The notes under the pieces were generated by a model. It searched no databases. It was not told the origin of the DNA and saw only the letters and a list, made by a program, of their open reading frames with translations. From Candidatus Endomicrobiellum roisinitermitis (GTDB lineage: Bacteria; Elusimicrobiota; Endomicrobiia; Endomicrobiales; Endomicrobiaceae), in assembly GCA_031287855.1 (NCBI GenBank), contig JAITSL010000033.1, positions 1,163-65,162 of the forward strand: a stretch of 64,000 nucleotides of DNA. The letters are read 5' to 3'. Made by a program: the position numbers and the translations under genes. Positions within the stretch are counted from its first letter, which is position 1, and the number at the start of each line of letters is the position of its first letter. Shown here piece after piece: positions 1 through 48,530 of the stretch.

Positions 1-2745
1 AATTGTACATGTTCCCCATACTACCCAACACTTCTTCTGCCTTCTCTAATCCCACCTTGGCTATCTCCTTTATCTTCCCCCTCATCGTAGGCTCTATCCC
101 ATACTCCCCCATCACATATCTCTCTAAATATTTCTCGTTCCTTACATTCCCTTCTTCATCATAAAATATCCCCCTCAACATCTCTATCCCTTTTATCTTC
201 CCTCCTTCTCCTTTTCCCACTTCCTCCTTGAACTTCTTCCCTAACCCCTTCTTTAACTTCCCTGCCAACTCATCTACTATCTCTTCATCTCTCCTTCCAC
301 TATAATATTCCCCCTTGACCACCTTCTCACTTATCTGTCCCAGCTCCTCCTTACTTATCCGCTCCCCTCCCACCATATCTATCACACCCATCAACTTACC
401 ACTTACCTTCTCCCCCAATAACTTACTTGCATACTCCTTTATCAATCCCTTCGTCTTTTCATCTAAATTCCCCAACATTTCACTTAAATTACTACCCATC
501 TTCTTTACTTCCTCCACCCCTACCCCTTTCAACTCCCCCAACTTCCCTGCTAATTCTTCAAAACTCCCTATCCCACTTAGCCCTTCTATCCCTCTTAACA
601 CCCCTAAATTCAATAGGTCTCCCAACTCCCCCATATCCCTCAATCCTATGCTCATCATCCCTAATATCTCTTCCCTATAATATCCCTCTATTATCCCTAC
701 TATTTCCCCTCCCAACTCCTTGCTACCCTCTATATATCTAAACAACCTTTCTACACTCTCTTGACTCCCGTCTAACCTTGCCACCTCTTCCATTAACCTT
801 TCCATCTCACTTTCTCCCTTCTCTACCAAACCCTTCTCTAATCCCTCTAGCTCTTTGCTATACTTGTCCCCTATCCCTTTCAGCTTCCCTACTATCTCTT
901 CTCTCTTCTTCCCTACCTCATCCCCTATCTTCTCTAGCTCTCCCATTATCCTCTCTATTTCTCCTTCTTTCTCCTTTAATATCTCCTCTTTCTTCTTTGC
1001 TGCTTCTACCCATCCTTGCGCTTTCTTTAAGCTTACTTCATACCCGTTATCCTTCAACTTCTTCTCTATCTTGCCTGCATTAACTCTCAACAGCTCTGCT
1101 GCTCTCTCCTTTATACCTCCTACTCCTATCCCTTCTCCTCCCAATCCTCCTCCTACTCCTTCTATCAATCCTAATACAAAACTCGGTACCTTCCCTTCTA
1201 ACCTCTTCCTTAACTCTACTACCACTTCTTCCTTTATATATTCCTTTACTATCCCTATTACTTTCCCTCTTATTTCTTTACCCTCTCCCAATTCCTTCAT
1301 CAACTCTTCCAATCCCTCCGCACTTCCATCATACCCCCCTATCTTCTCTTCCAACTCCTTACCCATTTCTTCCGTCCACCCACTTACTTCATTCATCCCT
1401 TCTCTCAACTTCTCCTTCAATTTCTCTATCTTCTCTTTAAATACCTTGCTCCCTTCATCCCTTATATCCCCTATCCCTCCTTCTCCTATCACCACTCCTA
1501 CCATCTCTTCCATCTTATTTACCACACTTGCCGGCATCACCTTCTTTAACTCCTCTTTCACCCTTCCCATCACTTCTACTCTTATATATCCCTTCACTAC
1601 TCCCATTATTTTCCCTTTTAGCTCGCTTCCCTCTATGTACCTTATTATCCCTTCTAACCCCTCTACGCTTCCATCATATCCCATCACCTTCTCTATTAAA
1701 CCATACGCTCCTACCACACCTATATCGTATTTCCTTTTTAATTCTTCTACTTCCTTTTTCAACTCCTCTTCTCTCTTCTTTATCCCTTTGACAAGCTCCT
1801 GGTACTTATTTACTATTTCCTCCGCCTCTTTCTCTCCCTTTCCACTCAACTCTTCTATTAACTTCCCTCTATTTTCTATCAACTCTTTCTCTTTCTTCCC
1901 TATTTCTTCAACCTTACTTGCCAACTCTTTCCATTCTTCTTCTCTTGGCCAAACTATTTTTAATGCCTTCCCTATCTTCCCTTTCAAGCCCTCTATGTTC
2001 TCTTTTACTGCTCTGCTTATTATCCCTCTTAACCCCTCACCCCTTAGTTCCTCTATGTCCATTTCCATCATCCTTTCTACCATCCCTCCTACCATCCCTA
2101 TCACTTCTTCCGGCACTTTCCCCTTCAATAAACCCTTGACTCTCCCTACCACTTCTTCCTTTATATACCCCTTGACTATCCCTATTATCTCCCCTCTCAT
2201 TTCTTTACTGCTCTCTAGCTCTCTTATCAGCCCTACCATCCCTTCAAAACTCCCATCTATCCTCTCCAGCTTCTCTACAAATATCCCAAACGGATTTCCT
2301 TTCAAAAATTTACCCCTCTCCTCTAGCTTCCCCTTCACCCCTCCTATCGCCGCTTCATATGCTCCTTCTACCTCCTTTATCCTCCTTTCTACATCCTTTA
2401 TCTGCTCCTCTATCTTACTCTTATCTCCTTCTTTACCTTCTAACCTCCCTCCCAACTCCTCTTTCTCTTTTTTCAACTCCTCTATCACTCCCTCCTTCTT
2501 CTTCCTTGCTTCCTCTTCTACCTTCACCGCTCCTATCCACCCTACCCAATCCTTATCCTCATACATCTTATACCCTCTCCTCTTTAGCTCCTCCTTCAAC
2601 TTCCCTATCCCTTCTTTAAATCCCTTCCCTATCAGCCCCTTTACATCGTACTTGCCTACCAATCCCTCTACACCTTCCTTCATAAAATCAGACAGCCCTT
2701 TTTTATCATCTGAAACATCTTTCCCAAGCAATCTCTGAAAGAGAG
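1..2745 (-). repeat. Cytosine-depleted, purine-loaded G/E/K/I/V-rich repetitive C-terminal region of the giant ORF
   Basis: The + strand is strongly pyrimidine-rich. By hand count the first 120 nt hold 8 G and 32 purines with about 46 percent GC, against 32 purines in 60 nt at 3001-3060. The switch falls within a few codons after the last hydrophobic segment (~2745). A ~40-aa motif recurs four times (see findings). Confidence 0.7.
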
Positions 2746-5700
2746 AAGAATTAAAAAATACTTGTAAAAAAGATATAGCTATAATAAACAACGGATTCAT
2801 ACTTGTAGTACCCAAAATTACAAGCGCCATTGGGACTAACATATTTACTATACCTTTAAAACCATCTTTAGGATTAAAATTAAGAGCTGAAGTTATAACG
2901 CTACCACCAAAACCACCAATTTGATATGAATTTATAACGCTAAACATTCCCAAATAGTTAGATGAGTTATTTTGCAAGTTGTTTGATGAATTATTAGTTT
3001 CAAGCTGCTGACTCGACAAAACAGATTTTGCCTTATTAAGATTGGCCAAAAACATTGAACTAACAGTTGTAGCTAACTGATATAACCTGCTTTGCTCAAA
3101 ACCGTAGGCAGGTCCGTTATATGCAGTTTTTCCAATCTCTAGAGCCTCTACTTCACCTTCCTTTGAAATTTTTGATAATAAATTCTTTAAACTGCCCCTG
3201 CCCCAACCTTTTACAGCAGATGATATTTTTTTTGACTCGTCAACACGATTAAATAAATCTTGAGGAGACGATGTCTGTAGTAATTTTTGCAAAACAAAAA
3301 TTGCTATAAATACAGGAAGCAACCACATAGCACCCATCAAACTTAAAAGAGGCATTACAATAAAAATAAATCCCGCACCAAGCTTACTTAAAGAAGGAAG
3401 TCCTTTTTTCTCACTAGTAGATGGCGCTACAATATTTAAAATAGTAAAAGCTAAACCATATATTCGACACGAATCTAAAAATTGTAAAACAACAAAACCA
3501 CCTCGTGATAGTACACTAGAATAATCTTTTTTTTTATGTTTTTTAGAATCAGTTACATCTTGTGAAAATATTGATGAGGTAGATATAGGATATTCAGCAT
3601 CGTTTGATAACAAATTTTTAAAAATAATATCTACCATTGTTTTAGCTTCAGAATTTTTGAATTCTACAAATTCATTATTTTCTGGAGCTTCAAGTGCTTT
3701 CATCCAACTCTCTAATTCTTCATCTGAAATTAACCCATTATTTTTAAGTTCAGTTAATGTATCCTCAAAATAACTTTGTATTGTAAAACCTTCTATAACC
3801 AAACCATATGATTCTCTATCTAACAACTTCTTATAAGACCTTTTATATTGACCACTACTAGAACCATACAATGAAGCAAAAACTCCAACCATAGCAAACA
3901 CCATACCAATTATAGGCATCGATGCAAGAGAAGATAATAAAATTATTGCAGCTATATGCACAGCAGCAAAAATCAATAATTTAACAATAAATTTCTTAAA
4001 AACCTTTTTATCAAATCCATTTTCAGCCAAATCTCGCAAGAAAGCAAGAATCATCACAATTTCACCACTAAAACTTAAAGCATAAGATGATACAAACTTG
4101 ACCACCAACGTAACAGTTCCAACTATTGAACCTAATGGCACAAAAAAATATACAACATAAAAAGTAACAACTAAAAGAACAAGCGCCATTAAAACAATTA
4201 CAGCTTTAAATTTTTGTTTAGGGTTCGTCAATCTTCCAAAATCTAGATTAAAAACTTTGCTAAGTAAGAAGCCAACTGCACTCTTAAAATTGCGCAAAAT
4301 TGACCCACTAGTGTCTATATAAATCTCTTCCATTAAATCTTGAACAGACTTTACTTCTTCCTTTAGTTCACCTTCTTTGAGTTTTAAATAATCTGAATTT
4401 AAAGCTTTACTAAATTCCAATAGAACAATCTTTGATTTTTCTTCAGAAATGTAATCATAATAAGTTGTTATGGCCTTGATTAAATCAACACTACCATTTT
4501 CAACATCCACAATATCTTTATTTTGCATATATTTAGGCAAATTAAGATTTTTACTATTAAAGCCAGGTTTTATGTCCAAAATTTTTGATATTGTAGGGAA
4601 TTTATTTTTGAAGTCTTCTATAGACAAGTTATAAAGATTTGGACCTTCTACAAACAAACTAAATAAATCTTGCCATTTTTGATCTGTCATAGCATCAATA
4701 GAAGATTCTTCTACTGTACTATCTAAAAGTGTTTGCTTTTTCAACAATAACACTTTTTCCATTGAATTTATTTTATCTGCTACTTTAGGTTGCGCTAATT
4801 CTATTTGTTTTTGCAATTTCTGTACTTCTGTTTCCTTCTCAAACATATTAAATTTTAAAGCAACAACTTGTATAAGTTTCTCTAAACGCTCTTTTCTTTT
4901 TATAAGTTGAGCTCTTTCATAAGATTGTTCTAAATCTAATGCCCGACCTTCAAACAGTTTTAATCTCTCAGTTAGCCTTAAAATTTCATTATTAACAAAT
5001 ATTATTCCACCTTCATTTTCTATTTGTTTTTCAAGAGTCTCTTTTAAAGATAACCGTAGCTCTGTGTTAAGTTTTTTTGTTTGTGTAGTTAAATCATCAA
5101 CTTTTATTGACAATGCTTTTACGTCATTTTGAAGTGTTTGTAAATTATTTAGATTACTAGTATTTTTGTCAATCTCACTACATATTGTTAAAGTAAAATA
5201 AGTAGCCGTTTTCAAATCCGTTTTTGTAACTGGATTCATTTGCAATAAAATATAAATTATTGATTCTCTTAAAGAAAAAGATGCTTTCTGCTCCGATTTT
5301 TCAAAACTAGAAGCATCTATATTTAACTTATCATTTACTCCAAAAACGTCTACTCCTAATGGATTAGACAACAAATAAAAACCTACATCCCTTGCAATTT
5401 TTTTTAATGCTTCTTCTCCTTTTTCTGTAGATATTGTTTGAAAACTTTCAGGCAGCAACAGTTTTATTTTGTTAAACTCACCTAAAACTATTTTTTGATA
5501 CAAAACTTCATTAAACAAATCTAAGTAAGAATTTACAGTTTTGCTATTTGCAATATTCTGCATACCTGCAACATCTATAATGTTTAAATCTAACATACGT
5601 TTTAACACTATTGCAGAAGATATAGGTAAAGCTTGGCTTAAAACATTTTGTAAATCTTCTCCTTTTTTAAACTTTTCAAATAAGTTTTCTTCTGTTTTAA

Positions 5701-8700
5701 TAATCAGAGCTTTTTTAAGACAATCCCACATAAAAGCAGAATTATTCTTTTCATAGCTCTTAGATTTAGCATCTATACCATCAACTATATCTCTTACAAA
5801 AGTTTTAATATCTAAATCTGTATTTTCTTTTTTAAAATAATTTAACAAATCATTTATTACAACTATATCTTTATACCCACTTGCATACACCCCAGTAATA
5901 TCAAAAGAATTACTTCTAAAAGTTAAAAAATCTGGAGCCTTTTCTAATTTTTTAGTTTTACCATCGTAAGAGTTTATGTCATCAGCTAATTGCTGGGCTA
6001 CATATTCATCAATAGTACCAAAACTCATTAATATAGCTTTTGTTATTACAGCCTGAGGGTTTAATTCATGAAACTCTTTTATTTTTTGAACTAAAAAACT
6101 GTCCTTAATATCTTTAAAAATATTGTTAAAATCATTCAAATCAGTCGACGAAAATCTTGAAAGTATATTTTTGATCTTAAAAGATAAGTTTCTTATTAAG
6201 TTTCTTATAATTACACAAAAAAAGTCAAACAAATCCATAATTGAAATAAACATACTTTCAATTAAAGGGGCACTTTTATGTATCCATTTTATTATATCAG
6301 AAGACTTTATATATGATTGGCGTCTCAATTCGTGACGTACAAAAACTTCTAATAAATTTTGATTTATTATGTTCCCATTTTCATCAAAAAATTTAGCTTT
6401 AAAAAAATCATAATTAATTGATATCACCCCTTCTTTAGACAACATTGAAATACTTTCATTGCCAGAAAAAGCCTCGCTAAAACCAGATATCTTTTTAATT
6501 AGTTCAGTTTCGTTTAAGTCTAACAGTATGCCTATGACTCTACTTTTATCAATATTTAAAGCTTCAGAAACAAACTTTTGTACTAAATCTAGTGGAAGAG
6601 CTTTGACTATCTTTTTAAAGATGACAACATTCTCTAAGCCATCAGGGATGTCAGTTTGACTAAGCGATTCTTTAGACAAAAAACTTTTCATATAAAACTG
6701 AAATCCGATAAATGGAATTGAACCTAAAACGATCAAAAGTGGAACTAAAAACCACAAAAAAGATGAAAGTGGAGAAAAAATAATAGCCATAACTAATGCT
6801 ACGCCTACAGCCATAGTGGTATAAAATCCTAACTTTCCTTTAAAATAGTCAATAATGGAATCAATCAAAGATTTTTGTTTGGTTTGTTGAGGTTGTGCTA
6901 TAATACTTTCCACAAAAGCTTGACCATCATATACATATTCTTTAACATTATTGTCTTTAGTAATAAAAAGCCGTACTTGGTTTAAATTATTTATATCGCC
7001 AGAAAGCTCAGCATTTATTCCTTCAGATTCAAAAGCTTTTAGTATTTGATTGATAACATCTAACTTGTACCCCTTCTGTGTTAAAATATCCACTGCTTCA
7101 ATAAACCTTTGCTCTGTTGTAACTTCAGACAAAGGTGATGTTGCAAGCGCCTGGAAAAGTATTTTACTTTGTTCCTTAGCTAAAGCATAATATGCATCTT
7201 GAGCTACCTTTATTCCACTCCCAACGTTTGGAGTTACAACTAAATAAGATACACCCTTACTAGATAACAACTCCGATACCCCTTGGGTATGAAAGCCCCC
7301 AGTAACTACTATATATATTTTTTTTGCATCTTTAAGAGACTTTACAACTTTATCAACAGAAGGCAATGAAATATTTTCCACTTGATTAATCTCTTCATTT
7401 AAACCATTAATATTATTTATAAAATAATTATTTCTATTAAGATTTACTTCATAAAATTGGTTTACTATCTTTTCATATCGTTCTAACATGTCAATCTTTT
7501 TATTATCAACATATTTAACCCAAAGTCTTTTAAATTTCTTTATATTATTTTTATAATACTTATAGTCATCAGATGTAATTTTACTAGTTAGATAATCCTT
7601 TAAATACTGCTCAAAAGTAACTAAAAATGCTACATCCTTTTGTCCCTCATCACTTCCAAGAGCTATACTGATTTCACCTTTCAAGTTTTTTTCTTCTTTT
7701 ACCATTTCCAAAGAATTAATTTTTTGACTCAACTCTATATAATTTAAAAATTTATTTAAATTAGGGAAAGCCTTGGATAAATCTAGACTGTTTTCTCTTG
7801 CAAGTTTAACTAAATATGTATACAACTTATCTGTTTCATTGAAGTTAGCTGTAGCATCAAGTAACATCTTATACACACCATATGGTAGCAACCCTCTCAA
7901 TTTTAAAATAAACTCTTTCAACTCACTAGTTGATTTATCATAATTTATTTCCCTTACCAATTTTAAAAGCGTAATATAAGTTTTTATATTCTCATATTTA
8001 TCTATATCTATACCAAAGCTATTGGCATATTTGTCCATAAGACGAAAATACTTTTCTGAACTCATTGTCAAAAATTCATATTCAGAGTAGATCTCTTCAG
8101 CCTTCTTTTGTTTACTATTGTAGTATAAAGATTTAAGATATTTTATATCGTCATACATGCTTGTTATTATATTCAAAATTTCTGGTTGATAGTTTAAAAT
8201 ATCTCCAAATCTTTTTAAGTTTTCCAAATAAGGTTCTTTGTTTTCTAAACCCTTTATCAAGTCTGTACGATTACTAATAGCAGAATAATACTCTGCACCT
8301 GTTAACATTCCAGTTGCAAAAATGGAATCTATTATTTTTTCGCCACTATTTTTTATTTTAATAAGCCAAGAAGTGTCTAATTGTCCATATGCACCTTCTA
8401 AATATACACTGTTTACTCCATAACTTTTATCAAAAGAAGATATAATATTACCTATATTTTTTTGCACCTGTGGATGCAAATGTAAATCTTGTATATTTAT
8501 TACTACAATATCACTACCTGTATAATTTGCATTTGTTATTTTCCCATAGGAATACGGTAAAGTGAAATCATCAAATATTTGTTTGTACTGCGCGCCTAAC
8601 CTTGTTTGTTCTAACACTTGAGCAACAGCTTGACCATAAACATAAGAAAGGAGGAAACAATTAACTAATACTATGGATATAATTTTTGCACAAGTTAGCT

Positions 8701-8785
8701 CCATCAAATATGGTTTAGCTTTTAACTTAACATTTGAAAATAAAAAAAACCATTTTAAAAGTCTTGTTTTAACCTCTTTTTTCAT
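1..8785 (-). CDS. Giant multi-pass membrane protein, 3' end beyond the window edge (2928 complete codons in window); absent from the supplied ORF track
   Basis: ATG at 8785-8783 with AAGAGG 9 nt upstream. Hand translation stays in one phase (first codon base = 1 mod 3) and reads as sensible peptide at every spot checked: 8785 MKKEVKTRLLKW; ~8480 INIQDLHLHPQVQK; ~7300 KIYIVVTGGFHTQGVSELL; ~7000 GINAELSGDINNLNQVRLFI; ~4250 SKVFNLDFGRLTNPKQKFKA; ~2750 VFFNSSLFQRLLGKDVSDDKKG; ~1690 and ~1340 repeat motifs; 22-2 SMGNMYN. No stop-delimited minus ORF is listed anywhere in 1-8871, as expected if one frame runs open to the edge. Hydrophobic clusters lie at roughly nt 8635-8705, 6700-6830, 3880-4200, 3290-3500 and 2760-2900. 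Full-length continuity was inferred from spot checks, not computed. Confidence 0.75.
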   Translation of the reverse strand, partial: MKKEVKTRLLKWFFLFSNVKLKAKPYLMELTCAKIISIVLVNCFLLSYVYGQAVAQVLEQTRLGAQYKQIFDDFTLPYSYGKITNANYTGSDIVVINIQDLHLHPQVQKNIGNIISSFDKSYGVNSVYLEGAYGQLDTSWLIKIKNSGEKIIDSIFATGMLTGAEYYSAISNRTDLIKGLENKEPYLENLKRFGDILNYQPEILNIITSMYDDIKYLKSLYYNSKQKKAEEIYSEYEFLTMSSEKYFRLMDKYANSFGIDIDKYENIKTYITLLKLVREINYDKSTSELKEFILKLRGLLPYGVYKMLLDATANFNETDKLYTYLVKLARENSLDLSKAFPNLNKFLNYIELSQKINSLEMVKEEKNLKGEISIALGSDEGQKDVAFLVTFEQYLKDYLTSKITSDDYKYYKNNIKKFKRLWVKYVDNKKIDMLERYEKIVNQFYEVNLNRNNYFINNINGLNEEINQVENISLPSVDKVVKSLKDAKKIYIVVTGGFHTQGVSELLSSKGVSYLVVTPNVGSGIKVAQDAYYALAKEQSKILFQALATSPLSEVTTEQRFIEAVDILTQKGYKLDVINQILKAFESEGINAELSGDINNLNQVRLFITKDNNVKEYVYDGQAFVESIIAQPQQTKQKSLIDSIIDYFKGKLGFYTTMAVGVALVMAIIFSPLSSFLWFLVPLLIVLGSIPFIGFQFYMKSFLSKESLSQTDIPDGLENVVIFKKIVKALPLDLVQKFVSEALNIDKSRVIGILLDLNETELIKKISGFSEAFSGNESISMLSKEGVISINYDFFKAKFFDENGNIINQNLLEVFVRHELRRQSYIKSSDIIKWIHKSAPLIESMFISIMDLFDFFCVIIRNLIRNLSFKIKNILSRFSSTDLNDFNNIFKDIKDSFLVQKIKEFHELNPQAVITKAILMSFGTIDEYVAQQLADDINSYDGKTKKLEKAPDFLTFRSNSFDITGVYASGYKDIVVINDLLNYFKKENTDLDIKTFVRDIVDGIDAKSKSYEKNNSAFMWDCLKKALIIKTEENLFEKFKKGEDLQNVLSQALPISSAIVLKRMLDLNIIDVAGMQNIANSKTVNSYLDLFNEVLYQKIVLGEFNKIKLLLPESFQTISTEKGEEALKKIARDVGFYLLSNPLGVDVFGVNDKLNIDASSFEKSEQKASFSLRESIIYILLQMNPVTKTDLKTATYFTLTICSEIDKNTSNLNNLQTLQNDVKALSIKVDDLTTQTKKLNTELRLSLKETLEKQIENEGGIIFVNNEILRLTERLKLFEGRALDLEQSYERAQLIKRKERLEKLIQVVALKFNMFEKETEVQKLQKQIELAQPKVADKINSMEKVLLLKKQTLLDSTVEESSIDAMTDQKWQDLFSLFVEGPNLYNLSIEDFKNKFPTISKILDIKPGFNSKNLNLPKYMQNKDIVDVENGSVDLIKAITTYYDYISEEKSKIVLLEFSKALNSDYLKLKEGELKEEVKSVQDLMEEIYIDTSGSILRNFKSAVGFLLSKVFNLDFGRLTNPKQKFKAVIVLMALVLLVVTFYVVYFFVPLGSIVGTVTLVVKFVSSYALSFSGEIVMILAFLRDLAENGFDKKVFKKFIVKLLIFAAVHIAAIILLSSLASMPIIGMVFAMVGVFASLYGSSSGQYKRSYKKLLDRESYGLVIEGFTIQSYFEDTLTELKNNGLISDEELESWMKALEAPENNEFVEFKNSEAKTMVDIIFKNLLSNDAEYPISTSSIFSQDVTDSKKHKKKDYSSVLSRGGFVVLQFLDSCRIYGLAFTILNIVAPSTSEKKGLPSLSKLGAGFIFIVMPLLSLMGAMWLLPVFIAIFVLQKLLQTSSPQDLFNRVDESKKISSAVKGWGRGSLKNLLSKISKEGEVEALEIGKTAYNGPAYGFEQSRLYQLATTVSSMFLANLNKAKSVLSSQQLETNNSSNNLQNNSSNYLGMFSVINSYQIGGFGGSVITSALNFNPKDGFKGIVNMLVPMALVILGTTSMNPLFIIAISFLQVFFNSSLFQRLLGKDVSDDKKGLSDFMKEGVEGLVGKYDVKGLIGKGFKEGIGKLKEELKRRGYKMYEDKDWVGWIGAVKVEEEARKKKEGVIEELKKEKEELGGRLEGKEGDKSKIEEQIKDVERRIKEVEGAYEAAIGGVKGKLEERGKFLKGNPFGIFVEKLERIDGSFEGMVGLIRELESSKEMRGEIIGIVKGYIKEEVVGRVKGLLKGKVPEEVIGMVGGMVERMMEMDIEELRGEGLRGIISRAVKENIEGLKGKIGKALKIVWPREEEWKELASKVEEIGKKEKELIENRGKLIEELSGKGEKEAEEIVNKYQELVKGIKKREEELKKEVEELKRKYDIGVVGAYGLIEKVMGYDGSVEGLEGIIRYIEGSELKGKIMGVVKGYIRVEVMGRVKEELKKVMPASVVNKMEEMVGVVIGEGGIGDIRDEGSKVFKEKIEKLKEKLREGMNEVSGWTEEMGKELEEKIGGYDGSAEGLEELMKELGEGKEIRGKVIGIVKEYIKEEVVVELRKRLEGKVPSFVLGLIEGVGGGLGGEGIGVGGIKERAAELLRVNAGKIEKKLKDNGYEVSLKKAQGWVEAAKKKEEILKEKEGEIERIMGELEKIGDEVGKKREEIVGKLKGIGDKYSKELEGLEKGLVEKGESEMERLMEEVARLDGSQESVERLFRYIEGSKELGGEIVGIIEGYYREEILGMMSIGLRDMGELGDLLNLGVLRGIEGLSGIGSFEELAGKLGELKGVGVEEVKKMGSNLSEMLGNLDEKTKGLIKEYASKLLGEKVSGKLMGVIDMVGGERISKEELGQISEKVVKGEYYSGRRDEEIVDELAGKLKKGLGKKFKEEVGKGEGGKIKGIEMLRGIFYDEEGNVRNEKYLERYVMGEYGIEPTMRGKIKEIAKVGLEKAEEVLGSMGNMYN

Positions 8786-8843
8786 GTGTTTAAACCTCTT
8801 CTCTTTTATTATTTATATTTTTCAAATTGTGTATATATAAAAT

Positions 8844-8883
8844 ATAACAACCTAGCTTTATAGTTATAAAGCTAGGTTGTTAT
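8844..8883 (-). terminator. Perfect 19-bp palindrome (ATAACAACCTAGCTTTATA gt TATAAAGCTAGGTTGTTAT); possible terminator of the upstream ORF or an operator in front of the giant gene
   Basis: Arms 8844-8862 and 8865-8883 are exact reverse complements. It overlaps the stop of ORF 8872-9441. On the minus strand it is followed by ATTTTATATAT. Its centre lies ~78 nt upstream of the giant-gene ATG. Confidence 0.4.
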
Positions 8884-9441
8884 TGTTATAATATTACTTT
8901 TTATTATTTTGTGTAGGTTCTCTTTAGGTATACCCCTAGGTAATACCAACATAAGAATTAAAAATAATAAAATAAATCTTATAAATTCTCTATTTTTTAA
9001 AAAATAAAAATTAAAGCTATCATTTATATCAAGACAAAAACTTCTCCTACCCCTACAAACTTTTGACAAACTGTTTAACGGCAATACCATCACTGGGGAA
9101 TTAATTAATTTATCTGCTTTTTGTTGGTTGCCATTTTGAGCAAAAAAACAACGACAGCATTTTGCCAATTCTTCACTTATTAAATTATTTTCATATACAC
9201 ACAAACCAAATATACTCGTTATTTTGATCACTGGAATATTTATACTTTTATAAACCTTTAAAAGTCCACCACCCAAATTTAACACAACAGTATCTGAAGA
9301 TTTCAAAGATATAGCATCTGAACTTTCTAAAATTGATATGGCAAGTATATTAAAAAGAATAGATATCGCTATTATTATAGCGACTATAAAATTTAGACAA
9401 TGGTAATTTTTTATTATATTTTTCATTGTTTTTATCAACAT
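8872..9441 (-). CDS. Hypothetical membrane protein
   Basis: ORF of 189 aa with hydrophobic N-terminal (FIVAIIIAISILFNILAISIL) and C-terminal (FIRFILLFLILMLVL) segments. No recognisable family. Confidence 0.35.
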   Translation of the reverse strand: MLIKTMKNIIKNYHCLNFIVAIIIAISILFNILAISILESSDAISLKSSDTVVLNLGGGLLKVYKSINIPVIKITSIFGLCVYENNLISEELAKCCRCFFAQNGNQQKADKLINSPVMVLPLNSLSKVCRGRRSFCLDINDSFNFYFLKNREFIRFILLFLILMLVLPRGIPKENLHKIIKSNIITITT

Positions 9442-9630: not shown

Positions 9631-10779
9631 ATGATAAAAAAATTACATTTGTATATTCTTAAAGAGTTTTTCACTTCTTTTATTTTCGGAATATTAGTAT
9701 TTTCACTTCTACTTATTCTAAACATAGCATTTGAGCTAGTAGAACTTACTTTATCTAAAGGTGTCGCTATTTTCCTTGTCTTAAAGTTATTTGTTTTTTA
9801 CTTGCCTAACATTCTAACACTCTCTATACCAATGTCAGTACTATTTGGCGTTTTACTTTCATACGGGAAATTATCTTCAGATAACGAAATTACGGCCATG
9901 AAATCTTGTGGACTAAACTATAAAACATTAACAACTCCGGCAATATATTTCGTATGCATTCTTTCAATATTTTTAATTTTTTTTAACCACTTTATAGCCC
10001 CTACAATAAGCAATCACTCTAAACATCTTTACGAAGAAATTATAACAAAAAGTCCCCTAGCTAGATTTGATGCAAAATCAATCACAAATATTGGAAATTA
10101 TAGTTTATATGCAAACAAAGTAAACAACAAAACAAATTCTTTATTTGGCCTTAATATATACAAATTCCAAAACAATGATGAAGATACAAGTAAAAAAAAC
10201 AAAAAGGATATTTTGCCTCAAAACGACAAAGAGAGTTGGAGAATATCTGCTGCTAGCGCCTCACTAAAAGCCTACGATAATGGAATACAACTTACATTAC
10301 ACAATGGATATTTACAAAAGGCAAACCCAGCTAACATGTCAGAAATTACACATATGACTTTTAAAAAATATATCTTTTTTATTTTTCTTGGAGAAAACAT
10401 TAAAAAAGATACTATTACACTTGCATCAATACAATCTCCTCAACTTCTAAAAATCATAGATGAGTGTAAACAACAGGCAATGCCATTATCATCATATGTA
10501 AATTATCAAAGAGATTTCTGGCTTAGATGGGTTTTTGCAATAGCCCCAATTTCTTTTGTTATTATCGCATTACCTATAGGACTTATAAGCAACAAAAGAG
10601 GTAAGGTAATGGGCTTTGGAGTAAGTTTAGGAATAACTATTCTTTACTACATGCTTTTTCTTATATCTACAAGTTTAGGAGAAAAAGAATATGCTCCTTT
10701 AAGTATAATAATGTGGCTACCTAACTTTCTAACTGCGTTAATAGGCTCATATTTGTTTTTTAAAATGGTGAAAAAATGA
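9631..10779 (+). CDS. lptF: LPS export permease, LptF/LptG (YjgP/YjgQ) family
   Basis: 382-aa polytopic protein followed by a 360-aa paralog with a 4-nt overlap. It has the typical N-terminal TM bundle, a central soluble loop and a C-terminal TM bundle. Confidence 0.7.
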   Translation: MIKKLHLYILKEFFTSFIFGILVFSLLLILNIAFELVELTLSKGVAIFLVLKLFVFYLPNILTLSIPMSVLFGVLLSYGKLSSDNEITAMKSCGLNYKTLTTPAIYFVCILSIFLIFFNHFIAPTISNHSKHLYEEIITKSPLARFDAKSITNIGNYSLYANKVNNKTNSLFGLNIYKFQNNDEDTSKKNKKDILPQNDKESWRISAASASLKAYDNGIQLTLHNGYLQKANPANMSEITHMTFKKYIFFIFLGENIKKDTITLASIQSPQLLKIIDECKQQAMPLSSYVNYQRDFWLRWVFAIAPISFVIIALPIGLISNKRGKVMGFGVSLGITILYYMLFLISTSLGEKEYAPLSIIMWLPNFLTALIGSYLFFKMVKK

Positions 10780-11858
10780 TAAAAGTCATTTATAGTTATA
10801 TTATTAGAAACTTTATTAAAATATTCTTTTTTACTACAGCAGCATTTTCGCTTGTAGTAACAATATCAGTATTATTTAACCATATAAATTTTTATATGGA
10901 GTACAAAGCTTCTTTTCACACAATAATGTTGCATTTGTTTTCTAATCTTCCAGAATGGCTCATACAAGGACTTCCTATAGCTACTCTTCTAGCTCTTTTA
11001 TTTTCTATAGGTAATTTATCAAAAAATAATGAAATAACTGTAATAAAAGCATCCGGCATAAATTTATGGAATATCATCATTTTGCTTATGATTATAGGAT
11101 TTACAATAGGCATTGGAGATTTTTCAGTAAGAGAACTTATAATCCCTAAAACAAGTCTCTATAATGAAAAAATCAAACATGCAGCAATTAAAAAGGAAGA
11201 TATCTCAATACAAACAGATTTTTACAACAAAATAGTTCCTCTTCCAAATAACATAAGAATGACAATTGGGCACTTAGATACAAAAGCAAGAACAATGAAT
11301 AATATTGTTATGGAAAAATATGACCAAAACTTTGTTCTAAAACGCCTTGTGTTAGCGCAAGAAGCAGTATGGGAAAATAACTCCTGGGTTCTAAAAAATG
11401 GCATTATGAGAAATTTTGACTCTGATTTTTTGAACGAAATCAATTTTAAAAGTTACAATTCACATATAAATATTACACCATCTGACATGTCTGTACAAGA
11501 TATGCGTTATGACACAATGAATGTTAAACAATTTAAAAAATATATACACCAATTAAAAATTTTTGGACAATCTGCAATCAAAGAAAGAATAGTATTAAAC
11601 ATGCGTTTTGCTTCAGTTTTTGCACATATTATAGTTATGATGGTTGGTATATCTTTTGCTTTAAGTCCTGGGAAAAGAACTAGCAGAATTCTAAGCTTTA
11701 CACTTGCACTTGTGGCAGCCTTGACGTACTGGATAGTTCAGGCTATAACTAAAACACTTGGAGAAAATCTTGTATTTTCTCCTTTTATAGCAGCTTGGCT
11801 TCCAAATATTATATTTCTAATTATAGGTATATACTTGCTTAATAAGGTAAGAAAATAA
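10776..11858 (+). CDS. lptG: LPS export permease, LptF/LptG (YjgP/YjgQ) family
   Basis: Paralog of the preceding ORF with the same architecture, translationally coupled to it. Confidence 0.7.
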   Translation: MIKVIYSYIIRNFIKIFFFTTAAFSLVVTISVLFNHINFYMEYKASFHTIMLHLFSNLPEWLIQGLPIATLLALLFSIGNLSKNNEITVIKASGINLWNIIILLMIIGFTIGIGDFSVRELIIPKTSLYNEKIKHAAIKKEDISIQTDFYNKIVPLPNNIRMTIGHLDTKARTMNNIVMEKYDQNFVLKRLVLAQEAVWENNSWVLKNGIMRNFDSDFLNEINFKSYNSHINITPSDMSVQDMRYDTMNVKQFKKYIHQLKIFGQSAIKERIVLNMRFASVFAHIIVMMVGISFALSPGKRTSRILSFTLALVAALTYWIVQAITKTLGENLVFSPFIAAWLPNIIFLIIGIYLLNKVRK

Positions 11859-11897
11859 TATCATTTATATAATTCGCTTTCATATGGGAGGCTTATC

Positions 11898-12575
11898 ATG
11901 CACATACCAGACGGCTTTTTGAATAATAACTTAGCAGGAGGTATGTTAAGTGGTGCTGTTTGTATGCTTGGATATTGTTTTGAAAAAGTATTAAAAACTA
12001 TACCAGTATCATCAGAAATCCTAGCAACAAATTGTGGAAATGCTACTGTTAAGCAAAATAGCTTATTACTTTCTAAAAACTCAAGACAAACTTTTTTAAA
12101 TTTAGCATTTATTGGTGCTTGGATATTTGCTTTTCAAATGTTTAATGTACCTATACAATCTGCTACATCTGCTCATTTTATAGGTGGAGTATTTGCTGCA
12201 ATTTTAGTCGGCCCATTTTTTGGTTTTATTATCATGTCTTCAGTATTAACAGTTCAAGCTCTGTTTTTTTCTGATGGAGGGTTACTTGCTCTTGGGGCAA
12301 ATATTTTTAACATGGCATTGGTTGGTTGTTTTTTTTCGTATTACGTTTACAAGTTTATAAAGAAGTTTAACAATGTTTTAGCGATTTTTACAGCATGTTT
12401 TTTTTCTGTAATGTGCGCATCTATATCATGTCTTGTAGAGCTCAGTCTTTCTAACACTATAATATTTTCTCAAGCAGCTAAGTACATGATAACCCTACAC
12501 CTAATCGCATCTTTTTTAGAAGCAATAATAACTTTAGTTTCAGTAAAAATATTTAATGGAGATATAAATGAATAG
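11898..12575 (+). CDS. cbiM: CbiM/NikM-type metal (Ni/Co) transporter substrate component
   Basis: Hallmark N-terminus MHIPDGFL, polytopic, GGAGG-like RBS (tatgggaggc) upstream, sits directly before the lar genes. Confidence 0.8.
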   Translation: MHIPDGFLNNNLAGGMLSGAVCMLGYCFEKVLKTIPVSSEILATNCGNATVKQNSLLLSKNSRQTFLNLAFIGAWIFAFQMFNVPIQSATSAHFIGGVFAAILVGPFFGFIIMSSVLTVQALFFSDGGLLALGANIFNMALVGCFFSYYVYKFIKKFNNVLAIFTACFFSVMCASISCLVELSLSNTIIFSQAAKYMITLHLIASFLEAIITLVSVKIFNGDINE

Positions 12576-12834
12576 AAAAATTATACTTCCAGGAATTGTT
12601 ATATTATTTGCTAGCATTTTTGCATCAAAATATCCAGATACACTTGAAACACTTGCTATTAATTATGGGTTTGCAAATAAAGCAAAAGAAACTTTATCTT
12701 TATTTTCAGGATATTATTTTCCGTTTATAAAAAACAGTTTTCTGTCTACACTATGTGCTGGTCTTACAGGACTGTTAATTATTTACATACTTTTTCAAAC
12801 GACAAAAAAAATTACAACTTATTTCATAAAGTAA
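12568..12834 (+). CDS. PDGLE-domain small membrane protein (CbiN/NikN-like partner of CbiM)
   Basis: 88 aa with an N-terminal TM, KYPDTLETLA (PDGLE-like motif) and a C-terminal TM. Overlaps cbiM by 8 nt. Confidence 0.6.
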   Translation: MNRKIILPGIVILFASIFASKYPDTLETLAINYGFANKAKETLSLFSGYYFPFIKNSFLSTLCAGLTGLLIIYILFQTTKKITTYFIK

Positions 12835-12856
12835 TTTGCAGTTTTATAGACAATAA

Positions 12857-13615
12857 ATGAACAAACCAGAACTTTTAAATTTATTAAATCAAGTTAGAAA
12901 ATCTAAAATTTCTCCTAAAGACGCTTTTTCTTTGATAAAAGCACCTAATATTGAAGATTTAGGGTATGCAAAAATAGATTGTCATAGACAATTAAGGCAA
13001 GGTGTGTGCGAAGTAATTTTTGGAGAAAACAAAACATATCAACAACTTAAAAACATACTCTCTAGCATGGTTAATAAAAACTTTAGGAACATTATAATAA
13101 CAAGAATTTCAAAACAAACAGTCAAACTTTTAAAAAAAAAATTTAGTATAAGTTATTCTCCACAAGCACATATTGCAATTGTTGCCAAAAATAAAACAAT
13201 AAAAAAAGTTGGCAACATAGTTATCGCTTCTGGAGGTACAAGTGATATCCCAATATGCGAAGAAGCCGCTATAACAGCTGAAACTTTAGGCAGTAAAGTG
13301 AATCGTCTATACGATATTGGAGTTGCAGGAATACATAGACTTTTATCAAATCAACACATTCTTCAAAAAGCACGTGTCATAATAGCTGTAGCTGGTATGG
13401 AAGGCGCTTTACCTAGCGTAATTGGCAGTATTGTAAGCTGCCCTATTATCGCAGTGCCTACAAGTATAGGATACGGAGCAAACTTCAATGGCATTAGCGC
13501 GCTACTTTCTATGCTCAATTCTTGTTCAAGTGGGATCTCTGTAGTAAACATAGACAATGGTTTTGGTGCAGGATATATTGCTAATCGGATAAACAAAATG
13601 GAGAGCATCTCATGA
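12857..13615 (+). CDS. larB: LarB, pyridinium-3,5-biscarboxylic acid mononucleotide synthase (PurE-like)
   Basis: PurE/AIR-carboxylase-like C-terminal half (IVIASGGTSD, AVAGMEGALPSVIG), placed directly before larC and larE. Confidence 0.8.
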   Translation: MNKPELLNLLNQVRKSKISPKDAFSLIKAPNIEDLGYAKIDCHRQLRQGVCEVIFGENKTYQQLKNILSSMVNKNFRNIIITRISKQTVKLLKKKFSISYSPQAHIAIVAKNKTIKKVGNIVIASGGTSDIPICEEAAITAETLGSKVNRLYDIGVAGIHRLLSNQHILQKARVIIAVAGMEGALPSVIGSIVSCPIIAVPTSIGYGANFNGISALLSMLNSCSSGISVVNIDNGFGAGYIANRINKMESIS

Positions 13616-14817
13616 ATATTCTCTATTTACAATGCCAAATGGGCGCCTCTGGCGATATGATAATGTCTTCTTTATTTGAGTTAATTGAAAATAAAAAAGA
13701 TTTTTTAAACAAAATAAACAATTTAGGCCTCACAAATGTAAAAGTAACCTCAAAAGAGGTGCTTAAGTCTGGTATTAAAGGCACGCACATAGAAGTACTT
13801 GTCCATGACAAAGAAGAACATTTGCACAGCAAAAATCACTCTCATAAATCCACAAACTTAGGAACAATAGAAAATATAATAGAAAAGCTAAATATATCTA
13901 GGACAGTTAAAAAAAACTCTTTACAAATTTACAAAATTATTGCAAATGCAGAAGCTCATGTGCACAATAAAAAAATCAATCAAATTCATTTTCATGAAGT
14001 TGGAAATCTCGACGCCATAATAGACATTGTTGGCTCTTGTTTACTAATAGAAAACATTTCTCCTGACAAAATAATTGCATCTTCAATAAACTTAGGAAAT
14101 GGTTTTACAAGTTGTATGCATGGTATACTGCCTGTACCAGCACCAGCAACAGCGTTCATATTAAAGGGTATACCAACATATTCAAACGCTCTAGACGAAG
14201 AGCTTTGCACGCCAACAGGTGCTGCAATTTTAAAATTTTTTGCTACTGAATTTAGCACAATGCCAGAAATGATAATAAGCAAAATTGGTTATGGGATAGG
14301 TACTAAAGATTTTAAAATCTTCAATTGTTTAAGAGCTTTCTTAGGTAAAATGAACACAAAAAGTTTAAACACTAATGAATCTATAACAAAACTCGAATGT
14401 AATTTAGACGACATGACTGGCGAATCAATAAGCTTTGCTACAAACACACTATTAAAAAGTGGCGCTTTAGATGTGTACACAACAGCAATACAAATGAAAA
14501 AGAACAGGCCTGGCGTTTTACTTACTTGTTTATGCAATGTTGATCAATCAAACTTTTTTGCAGACCTTATACTAAAACATACTTCCACCTTAGGAGTTAG
14601 AATGTCAACATGCAAAAGATATAGTTTGGATAGAAAAATCAGCAAAATTGCAACCCCATATGGAAATATCAATATAAAAGTATCTAAAAACCTTAACATT
14701 GAAAAATCTAAAATAGAATATAACGATATAGCAAAAATAGCAAAACTAAAAAATATATCTTTTGATAAAACATTAAAAATTTTAAGAGAACATAATGACC
14801 ATTCAACAAAAATATGA
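13612..14817 (+). CDS. larC: LarC, nickel-inserting cyclometallase (DUF111 family)
   Basis: N-terminal MGASGDM motif, ~400 aa, overlaps larB and larE. Confidence 0.8.
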   Translation: MNILYLQCQMGASGDMIMSSLFELIENKKDFLNKINNLGLTNVKVTSKEVLKSGIKGTHIEVLVHDKEEHLHSKNHSHKSTNLGTIENIIEKLNISRTVKKNSLQIYKIIANAEAHVHNKKINQIHFHEVGNLDAIIDIVGSCLLIENISPDKIIASSINLGNGFTSCMHGILPVPAPATAFILKGIPTYSNALDEELCTPTGAAILKFFATEFSTMPEMIISKIGYGIGTKDFKIFNCLRAFLGKMNTKSLNTNESITKLECNLDDMTGESISFATNTLLKSGALDVYTTAIQMKKNRPGVLLTCLCNVDQSNFFADLILKHTSTLGVRMSTCKRYSLDRKISKIATPYGNINIKVSKNLNIEKSKIEYNDIAKIAKLKNISFDKTLKILREHNDHSTKI

Positions 14818-15604
14818 ACACTTAAAGCAGTATTTGCTAAGCTTAGAAAGTGTAGCTGTAGCGTTTTCTGCAGGAGTAGACTCAACTTTTTTGTTAAAAG
14901 TAGCAAGTATTGTGTTAAAAGATAAAGTTGTTGCTATCACTGCAAAATCAGAATCTTTTCCTAAAAGAGAGTTAAATCAAGCTATAGAATTTTGCAAAAA
15001 TGAAACAATAGAACATATAATATGTGATTGGGAAGAATTAAATATTGAGGGTTTTTCCAAAAATCCTAAAAACCGCTGTTATTTATGCAAAAAAGAACTA
15101 TTTACTAAAATATTAGATATTGCAAAAATTAATAATCTCAAAAGTATAGTTGAAGGGTCTAACAGTGACGACATCCACGATTATAGGCCAGGTCTTAAAG
15201 CTATAGAAGAGTTAAACATAAAGAGTCCTCTTAGAATTGCAAATCTTAACAAAGCAGACATTAGGGCACTCTCAAAGGAACTAAACCTTAAGTCTTGGGA
15301 CAAACCATCTTTTGCTTGCTTATCTTCTAGGTTTCCATATGGGGAGTATATTACACCTCACCGTTTAAATATGGTGGAGACAGCAGAACAATTTTTATTA
15401 GACAAAGGATTTAAACAAGTACGAGTAAGATACCACAACAATCTAGCAAGGATAGAAATAGACGAAAATAGTTTTGGCATTTTTAGCAATAAAAATCTTA
15501 GAGAAGAAATATACAACAACTTTAAAGCATTAGGTTTTACTTACATATCCATAGATATATTAGGATACCGCACAGGCAGCATGAACGAAACCTTATCACT
15601 TTAA
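14795..15604 (+). CDS. larE: LarE, ATP-dependent sulfur transferase (PP-loop ATP pyrophosphatase)
   Basis: PP-loop FSAGVDST, conserved Cys region (PSFACLSSRFPYG), ~270 aa. Confidence 0.8.
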   Translation: MTIQQKYEHLKQYLLSLESVAVAFSAGVDSTFLLKVASIVLKDKVVAITAKSESFPKRELNQAIEFCKNETIEHIICDWEELNIEGFSKNPKNRCYLCKKELFTKILDIAKINNLKSIVEGSNSDDIHDYRPGLKAIEELNIKSPLRIANLNKADIRALSKELNLKSWDKPSFACLSSRFPYGEYITPHRLNMVETAEQFLLDKGFKQVRVRYHNNLARIEIDENSFGIFSNKNLREEIYNNFKALGFTYISIDILGYRTGSMNETLSL

Positions 15605-35232: not shown

Positions 35233-35306
35233 TCGGGAAGGCGGGACTTGAACCCACAACCTCCTGCTCCCAAAGCAGGCGCGATAGCCAATTACGCTAC
35301 TTCCCG
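35233..35306 (-). tRNA. tRNA-Pro (anticodon TGG)
   Basis: Reverse complement CGGGAAGTAGCGTAATTGGCTATCGCGCCTGCTTTGGGAGCAGGAGGTTGTGGGTTCAAGTCCCGCCTTCCCGA folds as a cloverleaf. It has a 7-bp acceptor stem, anticodon stem CCTGC/GCAGG with loop TTTGGGA, and T arm GTGGG-TTCAAGT-CCCGC. CCA is not encoded. Confidence 0.9.
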
Positions 35307-46819: not shown

Positions 46820-47329
46820 ATGAAAAAAGTTGTTTTTATAACTGCTCCAAATACTTTTAGAGATGAAGAATATTATAAACCTAAAGAAGTACTTGAAAAT
46901 GCTAATATTGAAGTTGTAACAGCAAGCACAAAAATAGGTGAACTAACTGGAAAATTTGGATTCAAAACAGTTAGTACTCTCTTAATTGGAGATATTATCC
47001 CTAACAATTTTAATGCAATAGTGTATATAGGCGGAGCTGGATCTAGCGCATTCTTTGACAATGAAAAGGCTTTAAATTTAGCAAGAGAGTTTTTTAAACT
47101 TAACAAAGTGGTAGCTTCTATATGTATTGCAGGTGTAATTCTTGCAAATTCAGGTATTTTAAAAGATAAAAAAGCAACTGTATTTGTAGATGGGAAAGAC
47201 ACATTAATAAATAAAGGCGCCACATATACTGCTGCTCCTTTAGAAATTGATGGAAACATTATAACTGCAAACGGCCCAGACATAGCTGAAGATTTCGGAA
47301 AAGCTATTCTAAAAGCAATAACCCTATAA
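46820..47329 (+). CDS. DJ-1/PfpI family protein
   Basis: 169 aa with nucleophile-elbow Cys in ASICIAGVILA and YIGGAG. Confidence 0.8.
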   Translation: MKKVVFITAPNTFRDEEYYKPKEVLENANIEVVTASTKIGELTGKFGFKTVSTLLIGDIIPNNFNAIVYIGGAGSSAFFDNEKALNLAREFFKLNKVVASICIAGVILANSGILKDKKATVFVDGKDTLINKGATYTAAPLEIDGNIITANGPDIAEDFGKAILKAITL

Positions 47330-47344
47330 TTACAGCTCAAAAAA

Positions 47345-47684: not shown

Positions 47685-48530
47685 ATGAAAAATATAGATA
47701 TTCTTATAAAACTCACATTAAAAGAAGATGGCGTTTTTAAAGATATTACCACAAAAGAGTTTATCCCAAAAGATAAAAAAGCAAAAGCTGTGCTGTTTGC
47801 TAAAAAATCTGGCATTCTTTGTGGTATAGATGTTTTTGTAAAGGTATTTAAAACAGTTGATAAGAATTGTAAAGTTTTACTAAAACTAAAAGACGGTGCA
47901 AAAATTAAAGTAGGCGATAAGATTTTAGAAATTTACGGTTTAGCTAAATCAATTTTAGCAGCAGAAAGAACAGCTCTTAACTTTTTGCAATATTTATCCG
48001 GAATTGCAACTTTAACAAATCTTTTTGTACAAGCCATTAAAAATGGTAAACCAAAAATATACGATACAAGAAAAACACTGCCAGGTTATAGAGAACTTGC
48101 AAAGTACGCAGTAAAGTGTGGTGGTGGATTTAACCACAGAATGGGGCTTTATGATATGGCATTAATAAAAGATAACCACTTAAAACTTGTTACAGATCTA
48201 AAAAGCAAAGTGGCAGCATTTAGAAAAACATGCAACAAAATTCCTGTTGAAATTGAGTGTGAAACAATACAAGAAGTAAAGCAAGCTATTGATGCAAAGG
48301 CAGACATTATAATGTTAGATAATACTTCTATTAGTAATACAAAAAAAATGATTAAACTTATAAGGGATAATTCTAACATACAGTATAAGCCAGAGATAGA
48401 GATTTCAGGTGGAGTAACCTTAAAAACTGCAAAAAGTTTATCTAAACTTGACGCTGACAGAATTTCTGTAGGAATGCTTACGCATTCTGTTACGGCCTTA
48501 GATTTATCTTTAGAAGTAAAAATAAAATGA
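47685..48530 (+). CDS. nadC: Nicotinate-nucleotide pyrophosphorylase (carboxylating)
   Basis: QPRTase pattern (AERTALNFLQYLSGIAT, YDTRKTLPGYR, KDNH). ATG 47685 is preferred to the listed TTG 47649. Confidence 0.85.
   Translation: MKNIDILIKLTLKEDGVFKDITTKEFIPKDKKAKAVLFAKKSGILCGIDVFVKVFKTVDKNCKVLLKLKDGAKIKVGDKILEIYGLAKSILAAERTALNFLQYLSGIATLTNLFVQAIKNGKPKIYDTRKTLPGYRELAKYAVKCGGGFNHRMGLYDMALIKDNHLKLVTDLKSKVAAFRKTCNKIPVEIECETIQEVKQAIDAKADIIMLDNTSISNTKKMIKLIRDNSNIQYKPEIEISGGVTLKTAKSLSKLDADRISVGMLTHSVTALDLSLEVKIK

Follow-up and report, generated by a model that had tools for sequence, protein, structure and literature searches.

A giant predicted membrane protein with a family-defining head domain and a purine-coded loop in an Elusimicrobiota endosymbiont

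A giant frame and its partner gene

We analysed a 64,000-nucleotide (nt) stretch of contig JAITSL010000033.1 from Candidatus Endomicrobiellum roisinitermitis (hereafter the window, in whose positions all coordinates are given unless stated otherwise). Its left end carries a giant open reading frame (ORF) on the minus strand (1–8785) and, on the same strand, a gene for a small partner protein of 189 amino acids (aa; 8872–9441). Translation of the reverse complement from ATG 8785 to nt 2 gives 2,928 codons with zero stops. The same holds under translation tables 11, 4 and 1, which rules out an alternative genetic code, and the remaining five frames of nt 1–8785 contain 78–416 stops. A Shine-Dalgarno (SD)-like AAGAGG, read directly at 8795–8800, lies 9 nt upstream of the ATG. 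An earlier reading of the window from its letters alone (the original prediction) had proposed both this open phase and this ribosome-binding site. It had also explained correctly why the frame is missing from the stop-delimited ORF track: by design, the lister leaves out any ORF that runs off its source. The frame is not missing from public annotation. The source contig extends the protein, for which at least 2,928 aa had been predicted, to 3,316 aa, still partial, and GenBank holds it as a ‘hypothetical protein, partial’ (Endomicrobium sp. metagenome-assembled genome (MAG), 70,422-nt contig, 3,316 aa) whose N-terminal 2,928 residues are identical to the window frame.

A complete ortholog (P0002, locus L001) has 3,832 aa, also without a stop in its 3,832 codons, and is 59% identical across the entire window protein. 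It is syntenic with the window, having a small ORF, LptF/LptG, CbiM and LarB/C/E upstream; a third, truncated ortholog (P0003) is syntenic too, and the start codon is conserved among the orthologs. In the window, the genes for LptF/LptG, CbiM and the nickel-pincer cofactor proteins LarB, LarC and LarE occupy 9631–15604 on the plus strand, divergent from the giant gene and its partner. The orthologs in L001 and L083 have these neighbours too, which we regard as conserved synteny.

The nearest reference genomes are those of Candidatus Endomicrobiellum species, and the N-terminal head domain of the window protein is 94% identical to that of the incisitermitis and africanum MAGs. They belong to the Endomicrobia lineage, which takes in endosymbionts of termite-gut flagellates (PMC11257099). 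From a codon alignment of the window frame with the complete ortholog, we obtained ratios of nonsynonymous to synonymous substitution rates (dN/dS) of 0.12 for the head, 0.21–0.42 for the middle regions and 0.25 for a purine-coded segment described below, at a dS of about 0.7–1.2. Ratios of 0.12–0.42 throughout indicate that the entire frame, purine-coded segment included, is maintained as protein. By these measures of sequence evolution, the giant ORF is a functional gene under purifying selection. It is most readily seen as the 5′ three-quarters of a gene for a protein of ~3,800 aa in a Candidatus Endomicrobiellum-like endosymbiont.

The layout of the protein is largely as first described. 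An N-terminal segment resembling a signal peptide or anchor (aa ~28–52, ending ...VYGQAVA/QV; 8630–8704, minus strand, as are all features of the giant protein below) is marked by hydrophobicity and by a family-wide N-terminal pattern, and the soluble region that follows it reaches aa ~650. Four hydrophobic clusters then recur at aa 651–699 (probably two transmembrane (TM) helices; 6689–6835), aa 1525–1650 (about 4–5 TM helices; 3836–4213), aa 1796–1831 (a hydrophobic pair; 3293–3400) and aa 1975–2016 (a second pair, which hydrophobicity and composition place at the border of the purine-coded segment; 2738–2863). The heptad-rich coiled coil proposed for nt 4700–5200 corresponds to a segment of significant heptad periodicity at aa 1192–1255 (5021–5212), and a further heptad signal lies within charged repeats. 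Composition switches sharply at aa ~2020. In the full-length orthologs the repeats stop at aa ~2930 at another TM segment, after which ~870 residues of ordinary composition follow. With ~14 predicted TM helices distributed over the chain, the giant protein is, as judged from its sequence, a multi-pass membrane protein.

No characterised family spans the whole protein, as the original prediction had also stated: searches of Pfam, NCBIfam and the PDB sequences with the whole window protein returned nothing above cut-offs. A homolog search with the middle region (aa 700–2020) found two close Endomicrobium proteins and nothing else. The C-terminal ~630 aa of the complete ortholog (aa ~3200–3832; positions 16700–18620 of L001) have an ordinary composition and a globular look, and gave no Pfam or PDB sequence match.

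The partner gene was recognised as a homologous ORF upstream of the giant gene in family loci, where we accepted ORFs of 140–240 aa ending −60 to +150 nt from the giant gene’s start. Of 71 evaluable loci, 54, the window among them, have such an ORF immediately upstream in the same orientation, and jackhmmer started from the window copy reaches 53 of these 54. The partner protein has an N-terminal TM helix and a C-terminal TM helix followed by LPRGI; the Arg right after the second TM helix is invariant in the alignment (LPRG, LPRS or TRRN). It has no match in Pfam, NCBIfam or the PDB. On the strength of these sequence comparisons, the pairing of partner and giant gene is a family trait. Two loci call for separate mention. 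In Candidatus Endomicrobiellum cryptotermitis (L003, ~1389–1762), the match to the partner is split into two overlapping pieces, with no intact ORF detected, a break that may reflect a frameshift, pseudogenisation or an assembly error. Locus L005 yields no intact partner call despite a 95% identical match.

Between the two genes lies a terminator-like hairpin with a perfect 18-bp stem and a T-rich tail (8844–8883, minus strand; two such hairpins found vs 0.2 expected). It reaches into the 3′ end of the partner ORF and lies upstream of the ribosome-binding site and promoter-like hexamers of the giant gene (TATACA-16-AATAAT, 8808–8835, minus strand), which are sigma-70-like by consensus match only. 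The hairpin and the hexamers together make co-transcription of the two genes uncertain; partner and giant gene may be transcribed separately or linked through read-through.

The head domain and its family

The family-defining head domain occupies aa ~60–565 (7091–8608), as delimited by the family alignment and a structural model. All 120 listed relatives have only residues ~34–565 of the window protein in common, always at their own N-terminus. An exhaustive profile search found the head in at least 8,721 clusters at 50% identity (7,467 at E ≤ 1e-10 and 3,989 at E ≤ 1e-30). The head begins at residue ~30–90 in nearly all of the best 150 matches, in proteins of up to 7,833 aa. Many head-bearing proteins have 2,000–7,800 aa, with a median of 2,628 aa among the members collected. 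Reference genomes hold 318 head loci. Every one of the 80 loci listed belongs to Elusimicrobiota, sampled in termite gut, rumen, groundwater and elsewhere, and a single genome contributes as many as 4 paralogs to this list; every named relative is from Elusimicrobiota as well. No second family member was found within the window. With its signal or anchor segment, its QDLH...EG...GGFH residues and its upstream two-TM ORF, the window locus is, by sequence, a member of this Elusimicrobiota family of head and partner.

An alignment of 27 diverse members contains 30 invariant columns (residue numbers given here are alignment numbering plus 48). The first part of the head holds Q99-D100-L101-H102, E130-G131, T138/W140, G159/L161/G163/E165, G179/E181 and N189; the second part holds N448/R451, G496-G497-F498-H499 and T518-P519. 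Five of these residues recur in the structural comparison below: D100 (8486–8488), H102 (8480–8482), E130 (8396–8398), R451 of an N-x-x-R motif (7433–7435) and H499 of the GGFH motif (7289–7291).

Regions past the head vary between proteins. Precomputed Pfam matches in the paralogs include phosphoenolpyruvate-utilising, HD, metallophosphatase, methyltransferase, APH and ABC1 kinase, deaminase, GGDEF, glycoside hydrolase and transferase, M48/U49/CAAX peptidase and radical S-adenosylmethionine (SAM) domains, and the recognised enzyme domains cover only small fractions of each paralog. The N-termini are more uniform: of 164, 156 have a net-positive n-region and 148 a small-x-small site. Such Sec-signal-like N-termini across the family suggest that the head is probably extracytoplasmic, exported to the periplasm.

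The literature that we searched on Elusimicrobia and giant proteins leaves this family undescribed and mentions only the richness of these bacteria in huge proteins. What was already known is the gene, as a hypothetical protein, and the existence of giant mosaic proteins; the family, the head, the partner and the purine-coded loop are undescribed in the libraries and literature searched.

A possible envelope hydrolase and competing explanations

The original prediction had proposed AlphaFold and Foldseek on domain-sized pieces. An AlphaFold2 model of the head (predicted local distance difference test (pLDDT) 83.2, predicted template modelling score 0.80) has six strands that alternate with helices; between them sits an all-helical insertion of ~270 residues. 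It has no significant match in the PDB. By rank among 350,542 PDB chains, the two best Foldseek matches are the erythromycin esterase EreC, and the top 50 also hold Bcr135 (2rad, 3b55) and ChaN (2g5g), all of which belong, with EreC, to the TIKI superfamily. Five TIKI entries among the top 50 of so many chains are, for this model, unlikely to be there by chance. A Foldseek search of the head against a viral library returned only coiled-coil-type noise.

The TIKI fold is alpha+beta, with a central, mostly parallel beta-sheet and flanking helices, and the signature of the superfamily is a beta-sheet core with a 2His/2Glu set and a basic residue (PMC6254334). In RRSP the catalytic pattern is E3900-x-H3902, E3930, R4001 and H4030, and in Bcr135 the catalytic pair is H85/E113 (PMC6254334). 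The head shows this pattern as D100-x-H102, E130 and H499, with Asp rather than Glu as the first acid, and the spacing from His to Glu is 28 residues in the head (H102 to E130), in RRSP (3902 to 3930) and in Bcr135 (85 to 113) alike. The basic residue would be R451, which lies 48 residues before H499; R4001 of RRSP lies 29 residues before H4030.

Our proposal, to which we give about equal measures of belief and doubt, is a two-gene cassette of a small two-TM protein and a giant multi-pass inner-membrane protein whose exported TIKI/Ere-type head would make it an envelope hydrolase or processing platform. The giant protein would begin with a Sec-type signal or anchor and the ~500-aa head, which would be exported to the periplasm. 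The head itself would be a hydrolase (peptidase or esterase) of TIKI/erythromycin-esterase type that uses D100-x-H102, E130, R451 and H499, with the large helical insertion as a lid over it. The remainder of the chain would be a lineage-specific membrane-embedded scaffold built from a juxtamembrane zincin-like module, the coiled coil, long charged loops and the four TM clusters; paralogs have the identical head joined to interchangeable enzyme modules. The head would act outside the cytoplasmic membrane, in concert with the small partner. PrgY and Tiki offer a parallel, in that their TIKI domains also lie outside the cytoplasm and are tethered by TM helices. We infer export, hydrolase chemistry, topology and any substrate from sequence patterns and the structural model.

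Several observations weigh against this proposal. First, the Foldseek matches to TIKI entries are not significant (E 0.27–4.4, with low template modelling scores). Second, full-domain and core-only profiles of the head found nothing relevant in Pfam, NCBIfam or the PDB, with no match to Erythro_esteras, Cofac_haem_bdg or TraB_PrgY_gumN, and hhalign of the head core with Escherichia coli YbaP (TraB family) aligned the GGFH/GALH motif alone, at a probability of 0.3%. Third, the first hydrophobic block may form one helix or two, and the side of the membrane on which the downstream regions lie hinges on that count. Finally, the radical SAM, GGDEF and kinase domains of many paralogs need cytoplasmic cofactors and are a misfit for a wholly periplasmic protein. 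We thus use ‘TIKI/Ere-like hydrolase’ as the best-supported mechanistic reading of the modelled head, and not as an established membership.

A constant head with variable enzymes downstream (deaminases, peptidases, phosphatases and kinases), several paralogs per genome and a conserved small membrane partner would also suit a MARTX-like effector or polymorphic-toxin carrier, whose head and partner would serve insertion into the membrane, translocation or processing while the variable modules were cargo for other cells or for the host flagellate. The TIKI-fold peptidase RRSP is itself a known MARTX effector (PMC6254334). We nevertheless find a carrier of this kind unlikely: no secretion signal, RHS or filamentous repeats, CPD, HINT or downstream immunity gene was recognised, and Pfam and NCBIfam searches found no toxin-like domain in the window protein and no toxin-carrier domain in the complete ortholog. 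The gene downstream of the complete ortholog in L001 encodes a radical-SAM protein, the partner sits upstream and resembles a membrane protein, and the TM clusters are interspersed over the chain.

The suggestion that accompanied the original prediction, of a giant adhesin, cell-contact or cell-architecture protein with its soluble regions and coiled coils as surface fibre or spacer, fared less well than its description of the layout. The very large size, the signal-like N-terminus, the heptad periodicity of aa 1192–1255 and of the charged repeats, and the lack of a recognisable enzyme domain past the head in the window protein all agree with it. We consider it improbable, as Pfam and NCBIfam searches of the window protein and the complete ortholog recognised no Ig-like, cadherin, beta-helix, RTX, two-partner secretion (TPS) or autotransporter domain. 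The predicted TM helices along the chain suit a polytopic membrane protein and speak against a secreted fibre; the conserved part resembles an enzyme, and the paralogs bear metabolic and signalling enzymes, not adhesion modules.

We also identified, in 23 of the 237 proteins collected, a gluzincin-like module that follows the first TM block and has the pattern ...INY...FFD..GN..N..LLEVF.RHE[LI]RH, then WLEEL.VS.GDL 20 residues later. Motif comparison with these paralogs places it at aa ~760–870 of the window protein (6176–6508), in degenerate form. HExxH is intact in most other proteins that bear the module; the window protein and its three closest orthologs lack this zinc motif and have HELR[RK] and [PS]LIE[SN] instead. 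The window protein itself has HELRR (aa 818–822; 6320–6334) at the position of the paralog HExxH, and PLIES vs the paralog WLEE. These replacements suggest that a metal ligand has been lost, and that the module is probably not catalytic in this clade. Profile matches are weak and confined to the active-site helix of M1 aminopeptidases (E 0.1–0.2), with weak Pfam matches to M1 and M48 (E 0.01–0.2 over all such matches), and Foldseek returned no zincin or other informative match for an AlphaFold2 model of the module (pLDDT 78).

The order of head, TM block and HExxH-X20-EE module in the 23 proteins, and the weak matches to M1 and M48 zincins at their active-site helix, recall a BlaR1-like sensor-transducer, in which an extracytoplasmic Ere/TIKI-like head would bind a ligand and signal via the TM block to a zinc protease module. 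This explanation seems to us very improbable. With HELR[RK] and one Glu lost, the proposed protease would be inactive in the window protein’s clade; the zincin fold was not confirmed, the module is missing from most family members and no repressor or regulator gene is adjacent.

The purine-coded loop and comparison with known systems

From aa 2021 to 2928 (2–2725), and on to aa ~2930 outside the window, composition and the orthologs delimit a purine-coded, E/K/G-rich repeat loop. Its repeat, ..DGS.E.L..L..Y....G.I.G.VKGYIKEEV..GKVP.., is present in four copies, whose cores we placed by repeat comparison at aa ~2165–2240 (..DGSFEGM..GIVKGYIKEEV..GKVP..; 2066–2293), aa ~2360–2425 (1511–1708), aa ~2466–2540 (1166–1390) and aa ~2660–2715 (641–808).

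The purine content of the coding strand rises from 54% to 78% within ~100 nt at aa ~2021. Over the loop, C falls to 3–5% and G rises to 38–41% of the coding strand, GC content is 0.43 vs 0.28 and GC skew is −0.84. The purine fraction lies 8.5 standard deviations above the remaining window and surpasses the maximum of 0.71 in 443 kb of related DNA. Codon choice follows the same direction when the loop is compared with the first 2,020 codons. Ile is encoded by ATA in 72 of 72 cases (vs 52%), Gly by GGA or GGG in 87% (vs 38%), Val by GTA or GTG in 90% (vs 51%), Lys by AAG in 70% (vs 24%), Ser by AGY in 94% (vs 35%) and Ala by GCA or GCG in 96% (vs 38%). Pro, Thr, Ala, His and Gln, all of whose codons contain C, are almost missing from the loop. 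The loop mRNA is predicted to be nearly unstructured (−7.0 vs −23.1 kcal/mol per 150 nt), and SD-like motifs abound (GGAGG at 7.7 per kb vs 0; GAGG at 21 per kb vs 1.2). Met makes up 4–5% of the loop vs ~2%, and nearly every ATG in the loop is preceded by SD-like purine motifs; internal initiation at these ATGs, yielding C-terminal fragments, is conceivable.

Opposite the loop runs a plus-strand ORF of 627 aa (855–2738), rich in Ser, Pro, Phe and Leu, and the antisense frames are equally open in both orthologs. Antisense stops need sense YYA (Y, pyrimidine), which R-N-R codons (R, purine) avoid. The ORF at 855–2738 is thus a shadow, a by-product of the codon pattern on the sense strand, and we rejected a real antisense gene there.

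The purine switch lies at the same site in two further orthologs and in 0 of 118 other relatives. At conserved residues, 27% of synonymous differences between the orthologs are A↔G changes and only 4% exchange a purine for a pyrimidine or the reverse, which suggests that the purine state is maintained despite divergence. The repeat units, like the motif MKEG.EGLV that follows the TM segment, show homology (E 1e-4 to 1e-8) with a module of normal composition that both orthologs carry beyond the next TM segment. This homology points to an amplified, recoded internal duplication, not to a foreign sequence. The original prediction had described a ‘compositionally alien repeat tail’; the aberrant composition and the repeats hold. 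The segment is not a tail, since in the full-length orthologs it ends at a TM segment and is thus an internal loop between TM segments, and its normally composed homolog argues against the word alien. A metagenome scan for further orthologs of the loop’s end found none, and no local purine-coded segment is described in the literature searched, that on purine loading included.

The recoding may reflect selection for an mRNA free of structure, SD-like motifs that bind or pace ribosomes, R-loop effects or the avoidance of C-dependent cleavage. We raise, tentatively and with more doubt than belief, the reading that the cassette, with its TIKI-like exported head and swappable enzyme modules, is a hitherto unrecognised membrane machine found across the phylum Elusimicrobiota, and that in the Endomicrobiellum endosymbionts one 900-aa loop of it has been recoded in purines through selection on the nucleic acid itself, in which case selection on the protein alone would not explain the loop.

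An abrupt change in composition of this size would agree with acquisition by horizontal gene transfer or with an artefact of assembly or low complexity, to both of which we give hardly any credence: three independently assembled orthologs share the segment, its position and its bias, it stays in frame at the dN/dS given above with units homologous to a normal module, and its near-absence of C is unlike any ordinary donor genome. That the ORF is a decaying pseudogene or a chimera in a reduced genome can be practically discounted, for although endosymbiont genomes gather pseudogenes, the zincin-like motif is degenerate and the partner seems disrupted in L003, the frame and its complete ortholog are free of stops at dN/dS values well below one, and synteny and start codon are conserved.

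Elsewhere in the window, a tRNA-Pro(TGG) gene (35233–35306, minus strand) is the sole RNA-family match. Two pairs of ORFs, each ORF at least 150 aa long, overlap in antisense orientation at 46820–47329 (plus) and 46873–47340 (minus), and at 48527–49474 (plus) and 48868–49452 (minus); one ORF of each pair is probably a shadow.

With at least 8,700 clusters at 50% identity, the head defines one of the larger protein families for which we found neither a Pfam model nor literature, and a large share of the giant proteins already noted in Elusimicrobiota bear it. A name for the family, together with its probable catalytic residues and its partner gene, provides an entry point for experiments. That an 11.5-kb gene is kept under purifying selection in endosymbiont genomes argues for an important role. 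The synonymous sites of the loop are fixed as purines across three species. The loop may offer a clear example from nature in which constraint on nucleotides overrides the choice of amino acids, usable for ideas on mRNA structure, internal SD-like motifs, R-loops and how very long messages are translated.

Among known systems, giant surface adhesins (RTX, Bap, TPS and autotransporter proteins) combine tandem Ig-like, cadherin or beta-helical repeats with a secretion domain, none of which is present in the window protein or the complete ortholog. Polymorphic toxins and MARTX have only the logic of constant head and variable enzymes in common with the family; their processing, toxin and immunity parts were not detected. 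Closer parallels exist to the TIKI superfamily (EreA/B/C, Bcr135/136, ChaN, TraB/PrgY/GumN, Tiki1/2 and RRSP), which resembles the head in its alpha/beta core with helices, as predicted for the head, and in the residue order of acid-x-His, Glu 28 residues on, basic residue and His in a G-x-x-H-type motif. In a further parallel with Ere enzymes, helices inserted between the first catalytic motif and the last would form a lid. Unlike RRSP, in which 128 residues separate the two His (H3902 to H4030), the head has ~400 between them and a far larger insertion. It differs from TIKI proteins more generally in its Asp in place of the first Glu, in the lack of a significant sequence, profile or fold score, in its place at the top of 2,000–7,800-aa proteins, in its dedicated small partner gene and in having been seen only in Elusimicrobiota.

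Gluzincins (M1 aminopeptidase N and M48 HtpX/Ste24) share with the paralog module a strand, an HExxH helix and an EE pair ~20 residues on, from which the module of the window protein departs by HELR[RK], by one lost Glu, by E values of only 0.01–0.2 and by the lack of a zincin fold match. The giant genes of Omnitrophota and the proteins of huge-protein surveys are like this family in their very long ORFs, N-terminal TM segments and mosaics of enzyme domains; the papers on them do not describe the family, head or partner, and the ~3.8-kaa window protein falls under their cut-offs of >5,000 aa or more. Genome-wide purine loading, finally, resembles the loop in its purine excess on the coding strand, synonymous sites included. 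The loop is unlike it in being local (2.7 kb), extreme (about 78–82% purine, with C at 1–5%) and sharply bounded by TM segments, in a gene that is otherwise ordinary.

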